A stretch of 46,219 nucleotides of DNA from a virus (Duplodnaviria; Heunggongvirae; Uroviricota; Caudoviricetes): the IMG/VR virus record IMGVR_UViG_2706794662_000004; one strand, 5' to 3'. Shown one piece after another: positions 3,136-9,292 of this stretch. The notes beneath the pieces were generated by a model. It did no database searches, had not been told where the DNA came from, and saw only the letters and a program-made list of their open reading frames with translations. Position 1 is the first letter of the stretch. Each line of letters begins with the position of its first letter. The position numbers and the translations under genes were made by a program.

Positions 3136-3423
3136 TTACTGATTAAGAGATTGGAAATACCTAACTAACTTACCGGCATCATCACATTTTTCTTTATCTT
3201 CTTCCTTAACATAGCCGCGACAAAAGGCTGAATAAAATTTTGCATTTTCAGAAGCAAAAGCAGCCGTCGAAAGGAGCAGTTCTTTGCATGATTCTTTTGA
3301 TGCAGCATCGGGATTATTTTTACATGCAAGCTCTGCTGATGAGTCAATAACAGAAATGCTATCTTCCTGGGCATAAACCGCAGCAGAAAAGGCAAAACAT
3401 AAAACAAAAATAAAACTCTTCAC
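3136..3423 (-). CDS. Small secreted protein with four Cys (95 aa), unknown function
   Basis: N-terminal signal peptide MKSFIFVLCFAFSAAVYA-QE; AT-rich coding sequence. Confidence 0.55.
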   Translation of the reverse strand: MKSFIFVLCFAFSAAVYAQEDSISVIDSSAELACKNNPDAASKESCKELLLSTAAFASENAKFYSAFCRGYVKEEDKEKCDDAGKLVRYFQSLNQ

Positions 3424-3450
3424 TTTATCTCCTGTAACAGTTATCGCAAC

Positions 3451-3858
3451 TCAATCAACTTTTTTAGCATCAGCCATACGCTTCAACCAGTAATCAACAA
3501 TCGGTTGCTCATCCACAGAATGTTTACCAGGTATAACTCGCCAGCTGTCTGCCGAAAGGCTACCGTATCTATGCGGGAAAAGGCATTTCTTTAGCTCCTG
3601 CCATGTGCTAGGAAAACCGTCTGCCAAAGTGCCAATTAACAGAAAAGGGACAAAAATCAGGGCTACAAACCATCTGGCAAGAAAGTGCTCAACAATAACC
3701 TCTTCACCGTTATAGTAATACGCATACGTATCCCATATACGAATTTTCCTTACCCTAAAAATGGCCTTATGCTGAGAACGACTTAGCTTGATGCGAATGT
3801 ATCCCTTATCCAAGAGGGATTGGTGTTTGTATGATTGAACAGCCATTTTTAACCCCAC
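3451..3858 (-). CDS. Membrane protein (135 aa), unknown function
   Basis: ORF with hydrophobic helix FLARWFVALIFVPFLLIGTLA; the true start may be the internal Met at 3846. Confidence 0.5.
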   Translation of the reverse strand: MGLKMAVQSYKHQSLLDKGYIRIKLSRSQHKAIFRVRKIRIWDTYAYYYNGEEVIVEHFLARWFVALIFVPFLLIGTLADGFPSTWQELKKCLFPHRYGSLSADSWRVIPGKHSVDEQPIVDYWLKRMADAKKVD

Positions 3859-4175
3859 TCACCATCAGCAAACAAAGCGTTATACTCTGACAATGGTAGA
3901 CGGTTGCCCTCGATGTAGAGATTCAGTTCATACTTCGTCTCCGGGTTTTCCTTGTCTGCTCGTTCCCAACGCTCAGCAGCCTTACGCGCCAATAATTCCA
4001 CTGCTTTCAGGTAATCCTCCGTACGGAACCAGCCAAAGATAAGGCCACGATCTGTTACAGCCCAGGCGACCTTTTTTTCTTCCTCCTGGATAGCCTTAAT
4101 GCGTCGATCGCATTCATCCCGGCAGAACTGCAGCTGACGGTAATCAAGTTTGTCCAAAAATGCAGTAGTAGACAT
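3849..4175 (-). CDS. Hypothetical protein (108 aa)
   Basis: ORF in the same minus-strand operon downstream of repA; no recognisable motif. Confidence 0.5.
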   Translation of the reverse strand: MSTTAFLDKLDYRQLQFCRDECDRRIKAIQEEEKKVAWAVTDRGLIFGWFRTEDYLKAVELLARKAAERWERADKENPETKYELNLYIEGNRLPLSEYNALFADGEWG

Positions 4176-4179
4176 ATTT

Positions 4180-4371
4180 TTACTCCCCGTTCACCGAAAA
4201 ATCACGATAGAAACGTTTCCACATACGATAAGTCTGCGCGAGTTGTTCACCACGAAACATCGCCTTCCTGGCCTTCATGTTTTCCTTGTGAGACTTTCGA
4301 TCTATGAACCAAAACCATTGCTGGAACACACAAAGCAAGAGACACAAAGATAATATCCACTGATTACCCAT
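4180..4371 (-). CDS. Small membrane protein (63 aa) translationally coupled to repA
   Basis: Internal Met (MGNQWILSLCLLLCVFQQWFWF...) whose ATG at 4371-4369 overlaps the repA stop codon; the longer 102-aa reading overlaps repA by 125 nt. Confidence 0.35.
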   Translation of the reverse strand: MGNQWILSLCLLLCVFQQWFWFIDRKSHKENMKARKAMFRGEQLAQTYRMWKRFYRDFSVNGE

Positions 4372-7300
4372 AGAAAGCGCCCTGCTCTTCGTAGCTGCAT
4401 GAGCTATTCCCGGTAATGTATTCTCGTAACCGCCGCAGTTCATTGCTGGACAAGTGATCCATGAACTCTGTGAGGTACAGAGATGCAAACGTCATAGCTA
4501 TGCTGGTTGATGACCATGATGACATAGTGGCCAGCTCCTCACCGGAAAGCGCACTCATCGCCCAGGACTCAGGAACAGCCACCGGCAATACGGCCAAAGC
4601 CTCAGAAATTACTGAATGAGGGGCGTTTTGAACCTGCTCGTTTGTGGATCGCGTTTTATCATCCATATATATATTGAGATCCAAATCGCGATCCATTTCG
4701 ATGGCTGTCTTCTCGGCTTTACGCGTTTTTAGGGTTAGGCCATCTTTCTGACGCTGAACAAGAATATCCAGCATAAATGCCGCTGATTCAGGCTCAACAA
4801 AACGCAAGGTTGGACGCTTATCGCCGTCTCTGCCGCGACGTTTACCTGTTTTAAGGCCAAGAGAGTCGCAAATGTTTTTAAACAACGCTTCCGGCACTTT
4901 AGGCTTCCCTTTTGGCGTCATAAAACCACCAATGTGCAGAACGTTATTCAACAGGTCACGGCGTTCGGCTGTCATGAGATTATCTCGAGCGAATTTGAGA
5001 CGCTCCTGAGTCGCCTCGCCGGTCATAGTCTCAGGGTTGATACCGCAGTCGATAAAGTACTGCCGGAGAGTTGCTGATTTAAGCGCATAGAAACCGCGCG
5101 CCCCGACTTCAACAGTAGGAGTAGCTTTTACCTTGTGATCGATTATTCCAGGGAATTTAGTTTTAAAGACATCATCAGCCTGCTCGCGAGTCATCGCGGT
5201 CACTACAAAATATTGCCACTGTCCCGCCTGACGGTATGCGTAGGTAAAATTGATGGCTGCTTCTTCCCGGTCGTAACGACGAGCTGTTACCTCATCTAAA
5301 AGCATTGTTTCATAGCGGCGAACTTTGTCTCGAGCACCATCGAAATAGAATTTCAGTGTGCCTTCTTCAACCGGTAGTTTCAGTTCGTTTTCAATATCCC
5401 AGCGGACAAGTTTTGCCTGTTCTTCAAGCGTCAGCGCGCGTTTTTTTAGCAGTTCTTCACGCTCTGATTCTTGTGGAGTTTCTGTATTGAGGTGCAGATC
5501 CAGTGTCTGTTCCCACACAATATCCCGCGCTTCTTTACGCAGATCTTTACCGATATCATTCGCAGCATAATCGGTGCCCAGCGGCGATACCTTATAACCG
5601 TCGCTGTGCATGATGCAGATCATGTTGCTGGCGTAGTCGTTACGCGCAGTCGCTTCAATTGCGGCTGCTTTAATTTTCATCCTGGTAAAGTCGGTATTGG
5701 CCACCCCCATTGATATACGGTCGCCATCGAAAATGACATCCGTCAGTTCACCGTTCATACCTGCGGTAGCAAGCAATGCCTGGGCGAATGCTCGTTCTAT
5801 TTTTTGCGGGTCAGTTTCACGTTTTGCACGAGCTTTATCAAAGCCGATAATAAATTCTTTTGCTGTACGGTCGCGGCGTAGCATTTGCACTGCGTCGCTG
5901 GGTACAACTTCACCACAGAACATGCCGAAATGACGGTCAAAATGTTTTTGCTCAATCGACACGCCGGATGAAATAGACGGGCTATAAATCAGGCCGTCGT
6001 ATTTTTTGACCATCTTTTTCGGTTGATTGGTAAATGCTTCAACTTCTGGCTCTGGTTTGTTTTTCTGGTTTACACACAGAAATTTCTTACCAGGAAAATG
6101 CATTCTCAGGGTGGCTGTCACATCTTCTGCAAAGGTGGAGCTGTCGGTGGCCAACATGATTTTTTCGCCATCCGATACAGCTTTCACCACCTCGGTCATG
6201 ATGCGATCTTTTTCTGTATAAAAAACCCGGATTGGCTCACCTGTTTCGCGGTTGCGAACATCAACAGGTAATTCAATTACGTGGATCTGCAGCCATGCCG
6301 GTAAACCTAGTTCTTCACGGCGTTTCATAGCCAGTTCAGCCAGGTCAACCAGCAGATCGTTCGCATCAGCATCCACCATGATTGGGTGTTGTTCCGTTCT
6401 GGCCAGCGCGTCAATTAGCGTATTGAATACAGCCACCGGGTTTTCCATAGCCCGACCGGAAAGAACGGCACGTAGCCCTTGTGTGGCCTCGTCAAAGCCA
6501 AAATAGTCGTGCTGGCGCATCAACGGTTGCCAGCAGTTTTTAACAATCGAGTTTATGCAGATGGTCAGTTTACTGGCGTATGGAGCCATTTCCTGATAGC
6601 CAGGGTCCTGATAGTGCAGGATATCGGCTTTTACACCTTTTCCTTCAGTCATCATTTCCCACAGGCCACCAATAAGGGAAACACGGTGAGCTACAGAGAT
6701 ACCGCGTTCTGAGCTATGCATTAACGGTCGTAACAATCCAGTAGATTTGCCGGAACCCATACCAGCACGAACGATGACGATCCCCTGTAGTGATTGCACG
6801 TACTTCAGGACGTCATCGGTCATTACCGAAGTTTCAAAACGCTTATAGGTGATATGTTGAGGGCGTTTATTGGGATCAGTTATGCGTTCGCTGAAAGAGC
6901 GCGGAGCCTGGGCAATACGGCACTTTTTATTCAGGCGACGGGCAATGTGGTCTTTTACCGTAGCGCGATAGATATTTTCCAGCCCCATTTCACGCAGAAC
7001 GATGCAGAACATGTTAAACAAATCTGACGGACTGTTAGGAACCGGACAGGTTAGCATGCCAATATCCACCGCTCTCAGCAGCTCTTTGGCAAAAGTACGA
7101 CGGTTATCCCGCTTAATTGTCTTCAGGCGGTTGAGCGTCAGAGATAGCAAATCAGTGCCGGTTTTCAGGCGGTTTGCTGTTGCAAATAGTTGACGTGCTG
7201 TTTCACGAAGTCCACGTAGTTTGTGCAGGTCGTTGAAGTCACTGCACTCCATTTGCGGATCGTCTTCAAAAGTTGGATAGACGCAGCGGACATCGTTGAA

Positions 7301-8359
7301 TTTCGATAAGATTTCATAGCCAGTCCGCAGGCCGGTATTCCCTTTTCCTTCTGTGGCTGATTTCCGGTCATTATCCAGTGCGCAGGTGATTTTTGCCGCC
7401 GGGTACATGTTTACCAGTTGTTCCACAACATGAACCATGTTGTTAGCGGATACAGCGACAACCACAGCGTCAAAGCGTTTATCTTTTTTCGTGGCAAGCC
7501 AGATGGATGCACCAGTAGCAAAACCTTCTGTAACAGCGATGTTTTGCGCCCCTTTCAGCTCACCGATAACAAAGCAGGCACCGACGAAATCGCCGCTGGT
7601 TACTGCGCTGGTCTGGTATTTCCCACCTTGTTTGTCGATTCGCTGCCAACCCACAATACGACCATCGTAACGACCGTCCAGGTGAGCCAGAGGGATAGCC
7701 ATATATGTGGTTGGCCCCCGGTTCCATTTCGCACTGTCGTGACTGGTCACGCGACGCACATCACATGAACTAAAAACGTCACGAATACCTTTTTTAATCG
7801 CATATGGCCATGAGCCGTCTTCTGCAGGAGCATGTTCCCACGCGCTGTGGAATGCCAGCCATCCCAGCAAACGTTCATGGTCCATTTGGTTGTTTTTCAG
7901 GTCATTAATTCGTTTTTGTTCTTCACGGCGACGACGTGCTTCGGCCTGACGTTTTATTCTTGCCCGTTCTTCTTCCGGTTGTGCGACCACGGTCGCATTA
8001 TTCCGTTGTTGCTCACGGCGATATTCAGAAAACAGGAAGGAGAAACCGCTCCATGAGCCAGCATCGCTGCCTTTATGGACGAAGTTAATGAACGGGTAAT
8101 CAATCCCTTTGCTGTGTTCCAGCCGAGAGTAAATTTCTACGCGTCCTTTGAGGCTCTTTTCGAGAGCTTCTGGAGATGTTTTATTGTATGAAGAGTAACG
8201 CTCAACACCCCCGCGAGGGTTGAGTTGGATGTTGTCGGAACAGGCAGACCAGTTGATACCAGCCATCTGTGCCAGCTCGGTTAGTTCATCCCGTGCTGCT
8301 TCAATTAGCGAGAACGGATCGCTGCCAAAGCGATCCGCATAGAAATCGTTTAATGTCAT
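4364..8359 (-). CDS. repA: Multifunctional replication protein RepA (primase-helicase, 1331 aa)
   Basis: Size close to N15 RepA (about 1324 aa as I recall); Walker A GMGSGKST in the central helicase part; position upstream of the cB immunity region as in N15. Confidence 0.85.
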   Translation of the reverse strand: MTLNDFYADRFGSDPFSLIEAARDELTELAQMAGINWSACSDNIQLNPRGGVERYSSYNKTSPEALEKSLKGRVEIYSRLEHSKGIDYPFINFVHKGSDAGSWSGFSFLFSEYRREQQRNNATVVAQPEEERARIKRQAEARRRREEQKRINDLKNNQMDHERLLGWLAFHSAWEHAPAEDGSWPYAIKKGIRDVFSSCDVRRVTSHDSAKWNRGPTTYMAIPLAHLDGRYDGRIVGWQRIDKQGGKYQTSAVTSGDFVGACFVIGELKGAQNIAVTEGFATGASIWLATKKDKRFDAVVVAVSANNMVHVVEQLVNMYPAAKITCALDNDRKSATEGKGNTGLRTGYEILSKFNDVRCVYPTFEDDPQMECSDFNDLHKLRGLRETARQLFATANRLKTGTDLLSLTLNRLKTIKRDNRRTFAKELLRAVDIGMLTCPVPNSPSDLFNMFCIVLREMGLENIYRATVKDHIARRLNKKCRIAQAPRSFSERITDPNKRPQHITYKRFETSVMTDDVLKYVQSLQGIVIVRAGMGSGKSTGLLRPLMHSSERGISVAHRVSLIGGLWEMMTEGKGVKADILHYQDPGYQEMAPYASKLTICINSIVKNCWQPLMRQHDYFGFDEATQGLRAVLSGRAMENPVAVFNTLIDALARTEQHPIMVDADANDLLVDLAELAMKRREELGLPAWLQIHVIELPVDVRNRETGEPIRVFYTEKDRIMTEVVKAVSDGEKIMLATDSSTFAEDVTATLRMHFPGKKFLCVNQKNKPEPEVEAFTNQPKKMVKKYDGLIYSPSISSGVSIEQKHFDRHFGMFCGEVVPSDAVQMLRRDRTAKEFIIGFDKARAKRETDPQKIERAFAQALLATAGMNGELTDVIFDGDRISMGVANTDFTRMKIKAAAIEATARNDYASNMICIMHSDGYKVSPLGTDYAANDIGKDLRKEARDIVWEQTLDLHLNTETPQESEREELLKKRALTLEEQAKLVRWDIENELKLPVEEGTLKFYFDGARDKVRRYETMLLDEVTARRYDREEAAINFTYAYRQAGQWQYFVVTAMTREQADDVFKTKFPGIIDHKVKATPTVEVGARGFYALKSATLRQYFIDCGINPETMTGEATQERLKFARDNLMTAERRDLLNNVLHIGGFMTPKGKPKVPEALFKNICDSLGLKTGKRRGRDGDKRPTLRFVEPESAAFMLDILVQRQKDGLTLKTRKAEKTAIEMDRDLDLNIYMDDKTRSTNEQVQNAPHSVISEALAVLPVAVPESWAMSALSGEELATMSSWSSTSIAMTFASLYLTEFMDHLSSNELRRLREYITGNSSCSYEEQGAFYG
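7982..7997. promoter_or_regulatory. 16-bp perfect palindrome TGCGACCACGGTCGCA, candidate SopB centromere site (copy 1, inside repA)
   Basis: Exact palindrome, one of five copies; resembles the F sopC core TGGGACCACGGTCCCA. Confidence 0.5.
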
Positions 8360-8413
8360 TTTTTAGCCATTCCATACGAATTATGTTTTTTCGGGTTGAA
8401 AAAATCCGCAGGA

Positions 8414-8469
8414 GCAGCCACAATAAACGCATCTTGAATTGACGGAATCCGTCGCGTTACTGTGGCTGC
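8414..8469. promoter_or_regulatory. Imperfect 16-17 bp inverted repeat with 23-bp spacer upstream of repA
   Basis: gcagccacaataaacgc ... gcgttactgtggctgc; lies in the repA leader/promoter region. Confidence 0.35.
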
Positions 8470-8482
8470 TTCCTGAAAAGGA

Positions 8483-8510
8483 CCCGAGTTTGCCGACTCG
8501 GGTTTTTTTT
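8483..8510 (+). terminator. Plus-strand intrinsic terminator in the repA-cB intergenic region
   Basis: cccgagtttgccgactcggg hairpin followed by eight T on the plus strand; no plus-strand gene upstream of it. Confidence 0.45.
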
Positions 8511-8604
8511 CGTCTTTTTTCTGCTGCTGTAACCTGAGTCAACCCACAGAACATATGCTCTGCATTAAACCAGATTTACAGCAAACAATAAACCCCGTAT
8601 TAAG

Positions 8605-9201
8605 TCATCTACCCTCAACCATGAATGATTTGATCGTTCCGACTATTTGGTGAACAAATTCAAGATCGCTTTTCCTGAAGATGGCGCGTTGTGAATTTGT
8701 TCCGTCCAGATAGTAATTTTCATCATCAAAACGGGCCAGGCGCTGGATGGTGATATTTCCTGCAGTATCACGAACCAGAACATCCTCGCCGGGGACCAGT
8801 TCCAGCGCAGAATCGACCAGGAGAAAATCGCCAGGCTGATAGTTTCCCTGCGCCAGATTGCTGATAGTTAACGCATAAACAGTATTGCGCTGGCTGATGA
8901 ATGGCAGGAATCGCTCAGTATTTGGAACCTGTCCTGGCTTCCACTCTTCATCAGGTCCACTTTCAGTTGTGCCAATAACAGGAATGCGATCAGGGTCATA
9001 TTCTGTCCCATACAGCACCCAATGCACTGGCTTGCGTAAGCATTTAGCCAGGGCAATACCTATCTCCAGTGACGGCATTACGTCGCCACGTTCTAAGTTT
9101 TGGACGCCTGCAATAGAGATATCGACAGCCTCAGCAACTTCTCGCAACGTCAGCTTCATCTCTAAACGGCGTGCTTTCAGTCGTTCGCCTCGTGTTTTCA
9201 T
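8605..9201 (-). CDS. cB: Prophage repressor CB (HTH plus S24 LexA/CI-like autopeptidase domain)
   Basis: 198-aa ORF with N-terminal HTH (LTLREVAEAVDISIAGVQNLERG) and a C-terminal CI/LexA-like domain; divergent from a cro-like gene across an operator region. Confidence 0.85.
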   Translation of the reverse strand: MKTRGERLKARRLEMKLTLREVAEAVDISIAGVQNLERGDVMPSLEIGIALAKCLRKPVHWVLYGTEYDPDRIPVIGTTESGPDEEWKPGQVPNTERFLPFISQRNTVYALTISNLAQGNYQPGDFLLVDSALELVPGEDVLVRDTAGNITIQRLARFDDENYYLDGTNSQRAIFRKSDLEFVHQIVGTIKSFMVEGR

Positions 9202-9223
9202 AGCTTAATCATAAATGATCTTC

Positions 9224-9264
9224 TTATAGCTGGCTATAAAATTTATTTATTATAGCTGGCTTTA
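9224..9264. promoter_or_regulatory. Operator/promoter region between cB and cro with repeated TTATAGCTGGCT sites
   Basis: ttatagctggctataa (9224-9239, near-palindrome) and ttatagctggcttta (9250-9264) in the divergent intergenic region. Confidence 0.5.
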
Positions 9265-9292
9265 ATTGTTGTTTATTGTTTATAATAACAAC

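Follow-up and report, generated by a model that had tools for sequence, protein, structure and literature searches.

The analysed window, 46,219 nt of viral DNA (IMG/VR record IMGVR_UViG_2706794662_000004), is by sequence similarity an N15-like linear phage-plasmid. Two co-oriented minus-strand genes flank the element described here: repA (4364-8359; ORF list), encoding a 1331-aa replication protein of the primase/helicase type whose N-terminal 392 aa are 82% identical to N15 gp37/RepA, and cB (8605-9201; ORF list and N15 annotation), encoding a prophage repressor of 198 aa. The element lies between them, in the repA leader, and this synteny is shared with N15 and phiKO2. By BLAST the interval under study is 99.7% identical to Escherichia phage PhiR46_1, and the cB-repA intergenic region has 82% identity to N15 and 81% to phiKO2. 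The interval also matches 214 plasmids in PLSDB, mostly 45-57-kb non-mobilizable replicons from Klebsiella and Escherichia, on which the flanking genes are annotated as 'plasmid replication protein, CyRepA1 family' and as an XRE/LexA-family regulator.

Expression signals of repA were mapped from N15. The putative repA promoter PL (8564-8592, minus strand; -35 TTTATT, 8592-8587; -10 TTTAAT, 8569-8564) is overlapped by two CB operators, OL1 (8553-8568) and OL2 (8576-8591), which lie upstream of the leader and both fit TA-N10-TA, the CB operator motif (PMC4997575). In both N15 and phiKO2, repA is transcribed less and copy number falls when CB occupies the OL sites (PMC4997575; PMC4488713). Within this intergenic region of phiKO2, binding by CB was confined to the part with OL1/OL2, and Cro did not bind at all (PMC4997575). 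From the position of PL, the repA leader would start near 8557 and be ~198 nt long, and the repA ribosome-binding region, corresponding to the N15 feature 'repA ribosome_binding_site', is at 8364-8376 (minus strand; AUGGAAUGGCUA on the mRNA).

A strong plus-strand hairpin with eight T, as pointed out in an earlier, sequence-only reading of this DNA, can be read directly from the sequence at 8476-8510. The stem (8482-8489 and 8496-8503, ACCCGAGT and ACTCGGGT) encloses the loop TTGCCG, and the T8 run (8503-8510) is followed by CGTC and a T6 run (8515-8520). This putative intrinsic terminator, located ~80 nt downstream of the promoter-like site Pinc (below) and on the same strand, is identical to the N15 feature 'putative terminator of RNA antisense to repA transcript', the extent mapped from N15 (8483-8510; CCCGAGTTTGCCGACTCGGG plus T8) matching letter for letter. 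Our own scan of the whole window on both strands (92 kb) found only seven sites with a hairpin plus T6, among which this one is second in stability and has the longest T run; the terminator scan of the analysis tool, with a loose criterion, also picked up the plus-strand site (1 found vs 1.9 expected, not significant alone). The description of the terminator as an orphan also holds, as no plus-strand gene lies within 6 kb upstream, no plus-strand ORF of at least 90 aa was found between 2159 and 8510, and both repA and cB are on the minus strand. Read on the repA strand, the same hairpin (8472-8502) is followed by UCCUUUUC and corresponds to the N15 'putative terminator of repA leader transcript'. 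Here that terminator is weak: the minus-strand flank is UCC plus U4 in the window and CC plus U5-U6 in most relatives, compared with U8 on the plus strand, and as a terminator the hairpin is far better in the plus direction (T8) than in that of repA (U4 here). The N15 genome record (GenBank AF064539.1) labels the hairpin 'putative rho-indep. transcription terminator'.

The GenBank record of the N15 immB region (U45242.1) has, at the homologous place, 'Pinc; promoter of putative antisense RNA' with -35 and -10 boxes, together with a terminator for the antisense RNA, a repA-leader terminator, OL1/OL2 and 'PL; putative promoter of repA gene'. All of these features map onto the window via alignment, and the Pinc hexamers (-35 TTGAAA, 8396-8401; -10 CACAAT, 8419-8424; plus strand), also returned by the promoter scan, are letter-identical, as is the terminator. 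With a 17-nt spacer, Pinc matches the consensus at only 9/12 positions, and the scan found two promoter-like sites vs 2.2 expected, so this match is not significant alone. The predicted antisense RNA ('inc' countertranscript; 8431-8510, plus strand, ~80 nt), defined by N15 homology and a start placed from the -10 box, would consist of a variable 5' body (8433-8472) and an invariant terminator stem-loop, and is fully complementary to part of the repA leader (transcribed from PL, ~8557 to 8360). The short plus-strand transcript antisense to the repA leader that had been suggested from the sequence can thus be retained as a predicted RNA, given the N15 annotation, conservation and the layout in phage PY54 (below). 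In the window, the element corresponds to the 'inc' locus of N15 and so is already known, annotated there as putative; the record of the closest relative, PhiR46_1, has no annotation of it. An Rfam search gave no family at the gathering score (best NsiR1, 26.4 bits vs a threshold of 39, terminator portion only), placing the predicted RNA outside every curated antisense family, CopA and RNAI among them. No paper on an N15 antisense RNA was found in the open full-text literature; later N15 papers, by Mardanov and Ravin in 2006 and by Ravin in 2011, reportedly discuss regulation of repA, and experimental data on it are reportedly given by Lobocka et al. in 1996 (J Bacteriol 178:2902) and in the 2006 paper (Res Microbiol 157:176). 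A search for a second trans target of the RNA within the window returned chance-level 11-13-mer matches only.

Next to the terminator is a large inverted repeat. It had been described as a 17-bp imperfect repeat; the repeat is present and is larger than that, with 22-nt arms (left, 8409-8430, CAGGAGCAGCCACAATAAACGC; right, 8454-8475, GCGTTACTGTGGCTGCTTCCTG) whose 19 pairs are interrupted by one bulged T and a small internal loop, and with a 5-bp hairpin at the apex (8441-8453). The RNA from 8400-8515 has a predicted folding energy of -54.1 kcal/mol (z = -6.8; 0/200 dinucleotide shuffles as good), and the opposite strand gives z = -6.4. Strand preference of the large hairpin, judged from the asymmetry between G-U and C-A pairs, is uninformative, with a mean of ~0 over variants: the hairpin is ~8 kcal/mol better on the repA strand in N15-type variants and better on the opposite strand in others. 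Because the Pinc -10 box sits within the left arm, transcription of the plus-strand RNA is predicted to begin (~8431) in the loop between the arms. Such an RNA would lack the left arm, and both arms would be present only in the minus-strand repA leader. The earlier placement of the repeat in the repA promoter does not agree with the N15-derived map, in which PL and the CB operators are to the right of the terminator (8553-8592) and the repeat is in the transcribed leader. The large repeat is therefore most readily understood as a leader-RNA hairpin, the DNA of its 3' arm doubling as the Pinc core promoter.

Homologues were gathered via RepA, a 23-nt pattern, a two-block pattern in metagenomes, and annotated records, giving 34-35 unique intergenic regions and 26 unique predicted RNAs; one part of the RepA route, a single-protein search of genome contigs, contributed only one locus. 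Sequence variation across the region is very uneven. The mean pairwise difference among 35 variants is 0.025 in a 48-nt block (8385-8432, plus strand) that includes a T-tract (8386-8391), the -35 box, the spacer, the -10 box and the predicted start, and which on the leader RNA corresponds to the 3' arm of the large hairpin plus CGGAUUUUUUCAACCCGAAAAAA. In the block containing the terminator (8473-8521) the value is 0.056 (35 variants). Both are below that for codon positions 1+2 of repA and cB (0.094-0.096; repA 0.094), indicating that promoter and terminator are more constrained than the neighbouring proteins. The PL/OL region (0.20) and the RNA body (8433-8472; 0.36) differ more. The value for the body is close to that for third codon positions (0.37-0.39; repA 0.39), so that a 'hypervariable' RNA body under diversifying selection was rejected: the body changes at a neutral rate and is not accelerated. 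The low value for the 48-nt block is inflated by the search, in which 23 nt of the invariant block served as the pattern for 48 loci. The same block is also present in loci found by RepA or BLAST, in N15, in phiKO2 and in a Pseudocitrobacter locus, and the difference calculated for the window, the Pseudocitrobacter locus and phiKO2 alone is 0.028.

The two arms of the inverted repeat evolve differently. The left arm is near-invariant in relatives and the right arm is variable in sequence with complementarity kept, a bulge of 1-3 nt in the right arm shifting position among variants. Shuffling of the variable segment alone gives z = -3.3 to -8, and no variant has lost the hairpin with the invariant arm. 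One fixed arm with a drifting but still pairing partner is what an RNA hairpin predicts, while a protein-binding palindrome predicts conservation of both half-sites. Together with the frozen promoter and terminator and the PY54 parallel (below), this comparative pattern provides modest new support for the old N15 annotation of a putative antisense RNA.

More distant support comes from the Yersinia phages PY54 and P840 (vB_YenS-P840), which have RepA proteins with 49-50% identity and no BLAST match to the leader of the window. In both, the cI-repA spacer is laid out alike, at 110-135 nt upstream of repA in a leader of ~200 nt: an inverted repeat (CTACAATCAACTCAC ... GTGGGGTGTTGATTTGTAG) with TACAAT in its left arm, and next a strong hairpin whose T5 run is on the antisense strand relative to repA. 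The -35 box in PY54, read by eye, is weak (TTGCGC, 18-nt spacer), and the PY54 record annotates no RNA at this site. In the sense direction the PY54 hairpin lacks a U run, which argues that the conserved function is termination of an antisense transcript, and not leader attenuation at this hairpin as the core mechanism. A clear anti-Shine-Dalgarno stretch directly follows the large hairpin in PY54. Among more distant telomere phages, a promoter-like site in antisense orientation is present in phiHAP-1, with a hairpin whose T run is poor, and in VP882 no terminator-like site was identified upstream of repA.

Taken together, the locus is probably an 'inc' antisense-RNA gene located within the repA leader that represses repA. 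Pinc (TTGAAA-17-CACAAT; 8396-8424, plus strand) would fire toward cB, away from repA, and the transcript, starting near 8431 and stopping at T8 (8503-8510), would be an RNA of ~80 nt. This would pair with the stretch of the leader comprising the terminator hairpin and the 5' arm and apical loop of the large leader hairpin, the large repeat acting as a structure of the leader RNA and not as a protein site, and the RNA-RNA pairing would lower repA expression. [quoted passage not shown] We infer that the RNA is made, that it starts near 8431 and that it represses repA from predicted features and their conservation.

The step at which repA would be affected can be ranked only weakly, with inactivation of the leader triggered by the duplex (cleavage or decay) ahead of attenuation, and translational refolding last. 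The predicted RNA does not overlap the repA ribosome site, from which it is separated by ~55 nt. Translational control via refolding of the leader was rejected, as masking of the target left predicted accessibility of the Shine-Dalgarno sequence and AUG unchanged in 33 N15-like leaders and PY54; a direct translational block is accordingly not supported. The repA ribosome site is predicted to form a local hairpin with repA codons ~9-12 whether the antisense target is masked or free. A leader peptide comparable to Tap of plasmid R1 was also considered. In all variants an ORF that starts from (A/G)UG at 8432 extends over the repA ribosome site; in 13 of 35 it ends with a stop overlapping the repA AUG, and in the others the stop varies in position. 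The ORF has no Shine-Dalgarno sequence and no conserved stop, and its first codon is GUU in one variant.

The terminator hairpin might instead be only a bidirectional terminator or insulator, stopping leftward transcripts from cB/PL and stray rightward transcripts, with no regulatory antisense RNA and with the repeat as a structural element of the leader affecting stability or translation. The annotation of a 'putative bidirectional' terminator in phiKO2, the CC plus U5-U6 on the repA strand of most relatives, the leader terminator annotated in N15 and the lack of significance of the Pinc match by itself are all in keeping with this reading. It is nevertheless rather unlikely, since the U run on the repA strand is only 4 nt here and absent in PY54 while the opposite T run is strong in both, since there is no rightward transcription unit upstream that would need a stop, and since an insulator gives no reason for a 48-nt block from T-tract to predicted start to exceed coding positions in conservation.

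If the two leader hairpins were a cis-acting attenuator, read-through from PL would mainly set repA expression and the antisense RNA would only modulate it, as in pT181/pIP501. The leader has two candidate hairpins, that at 8502-8476 and the large one at 8475-8409, the latter followed by CGGAUUUUUUC, with a U6 run after a 4-nt spacer; the first is the annotated N15 'putative terminator of repA leader transcript'. Masking of the target is predicted to free the invariant arm for pairing with an upstream GCAGCAGCC segment, an alternative pairing typical of attenuators. Comparison of leader folding between free and masked states, however, revealed no terminator/antiterminator switch, and the helix just before U6 is predicted in both. 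In the sense direction, the first hairpin is followed here by a poor U run and in PY54 by none, and the U6 run, 4 nt off the stem, is equally explicable as part of the antisense promoter region, leaving an attenuator as the main control quite improbable.

The remaining alternative has a dimeric protein (CB, Cro, RepA or a host factor) bind the inverted repeat as DNA and so regulate repA or Pinc; a protein-binding site had also been considered in the sequence-only reading. Such a site would account for a long palindrome-like sequence beside a regulated gene and for possible contacts in the near-invariant left arm, but can be set aside as hardly credible, given that a dimer should conserve both half-sites whereas the right arm, with its indels and bulges of changing position, diverges at the neutral rate and retains only its capacity to pair, that the arms are 23 nt apart, that the CB operators are elsewhere (8553-8591) with a different motif, that in phiKO2 the only part of the region bound by CB was that with OL1/OL2 and Cro bound no part (PMC4997575), and that the repeat is unlike the sopC-like partition palindrome inside repA, by which a sopC-type partition site was also rejected.

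Returning to the antisense RNA, a stem-loop is predicted in the RNA body of 26/26 variants and is always more stable on the plus than on the minus strand. It was discarded as evidence, also for a conserved stem-loop serving loop-loop recognition as in CopA/CopT-type control: its stability exceeds neither that of shuffles (z = -2.4 to +1.1) nor that of arm-swap chimeras (-11.2 vs -10.2 kcal/mol), and it is explained by the G/U-rich composition that pairing with the A/C-rich invariant arm imposes. A more speculative extension, possible but on the doubtful side, is that RNA body and leader hairpin form a freely drifting specificity cassette between a frozen promoter and terminator, the 26 variants, from Escherichia, Klebsiella, Enterobacter and Citrobacter, then representing different incompatibility or copy-control specificities, and the 48-nt block being under extra constraint. 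That constraint could reflect a three-way junction in the leader closed by GAAAAAAGACG and CGGAUUUUUUC, or protein contact. If correct, a specificity cassette would explain how related phage-plasmids could coexist in one cell.

Clinical Klebsiella and E. coli commonly carry N15-like linear phage-plasmids, and a second, RNA-based brake on repA would bear on how many copies they keep, on cargo-gene dosage and on whether related elements are compatible. The pJAZZ linear cloning vectors are also N15-like in basis, and their copy number is raised by antagonising CB (PMC2847241). The main value of the present analysis lies in identifying as real and conserved an element that had earlier been described as putative.

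Compared with N15 immB (U45242.1), the window has the same position of the element between cB and repA, the same -35 and -10 hexamers and terminator, and the same arrangement of OL1/OL2 and PL. Differences are found in the RNA body (8433-8472; apical hairpin and right arm), in the sense U run (U5 in N15, U4 in the window) and in the leader, which is 1 nt shorter before the ribosome site in the window. The terminator between gp35 (repA) and gp36 (cB) of phiKO2 has an identical stem, loop and T8, but A6/U6 flanks make it more symmetric, whereas the hairpin in the window is clearly stronger in the direction antisense to repA. PY54 and P840 are alike in layout, but their hairpin is not a terminator in the sense direction.

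Among better-known systems, lambda OOP is an antisense RNA of ~77 nt that ends at a strong intrinsic terminator, its gene lying between those for immunity and for replication. The predicted RNA likewise is small, antisense and strongly terminated, and is located at the immunity/replication junction of a temperate phage, but OOP is antisense to the 3' end of cII and not to the leader of a replication gene, and there is no homology. In plasmids pT181 and pIP501, antisense RNAs drive transcription attenuation of rep leaders; a countertranscript and terminator-like hairpins in the rep leader are common features, but in the window no antiterminator/terminator pair was identified and sense U runs are weak or absent.

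A parallel in organisation is plasmid R1 (IncFII), in which the CopB repressor and the CopA antisense RNA control repA. In both, a repressor gene is upstream of and co-oriented with repA, the repressor acts on the repA promoter, and a countertranscript of ~80-90 nt (predicted in the window) with a terminator stem-loop falls in the repA leader, tens of nt before the ribosome site. There is no sequence or Rfam match between the R1 RNA and the predicted RNA, and R1 RepA is unrelated to the primase-helicase RepA of the window. CopA has complete stem-loops matching its target, while the predicted RNA starts inside the loop of the target hairpin, and R1 requires the tap leader peptide, while the comparable ORF in the window lacks a Shine-Dalgarno sequence and a conserved stop. 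The best-supported reading is that CB and the putative antisense RNA would together exert two-layer control of repA, in a gene order like that of CopB and CopA in R1.

Two long-range complementarities were identified in the leader RNA of repA (replication protein gene, 8359..4364, minus strand), and both are conserved. The first pairs GAAAAAAGACG (8511-8521) with CGGAUUUUUUC (8398-8408), and the second GGGUUGA (8539-8545) with UCAACCC (8393-8399). Both sides of the first pair are invariant, and the second varies only at the edges of its upstream side, so that covariation is uninformative for either. Together, the two pairings would close a three-way junction enclosing the two leader hairpins (8502..8476 and 8475..8409).

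The leader also contains a small orf (8432..8301, minus strand), the AUG of which opens the 3′ arm of the large hairpin. It has 43 codons in the window, ends 56 nt inside repA and lacks a Shine-Dalgarno sequence. In 13 of 35 variants of the cB-repA region, N15 among them, the UGA stop of this orf shares bases with the AUG of repA (AUGA). The first codon, AUG in the window, is GUG in most relatives and GUU in one variant. The reading frame of this orf crosses the repA ribosome site.

The spacer between cI and repA in the Yersinia phage vB_YenS-P840 is annotated with two small hypothetical orfs, ORF37 and ORF36 (1,067-1,159 and 1,176-1,292 of that locus). The stretch carrying them is identical to the Yersinia phage PY54 over the repeat, the hairpin and the predicted antisense promoter, and both orfs are probably over-annotations of the leader and antisense region. 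In a bioRxiv preprint, ‘Novel phage-plasmid mediated mechanism of antibiotic heteroresistance in Escherichia coli’ (10.64898/2026.08.19.745698), repA comes up 41 times and copy number 20; it may describe copy-up mutations relevant to the cB-repA region.

Outside the leader, a palindrome within repA (GTGCGACCACGGTCGCAT; 7981-7998) is letter-identical to a phiKO2 site annotated as ‘putative plasmid partitioning site’ (1,165-1,182 of that locus); it is probably a dispersed centromere of the sopC type. Repeated TTATAGCTGGCT motifs in the cB-cro intergenic region (9205-9290) are presumably the OR operators of the CB repressor of this phage, and are not the same as the OL sequences at 8553-8591. To the left of repA, the orf list includes a 637-aa orf on the plus strand (246-2159), which we guess may encode the protelomerase, followed by three small orfs on the minus strand (3136-4175).

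At the repA translation start itself, the Shine-Dalgarno region (CGUAUGGAA; 8367-8377, minus strand) is predicted to pair with approximately codons 9-12 of repA (UUCUAUGCG; ~8326-8336) across all N15-like variants. PY54 differs in having an anti-Shine-Dalgarno stretch located upstream, where GUUUCCGCU pairs with AGGCGGAAAU. The predicted codon 9-12 pairing of the N15-like variants, together with the upstream stretch in PY54, suggests a structural limit on repA translation.
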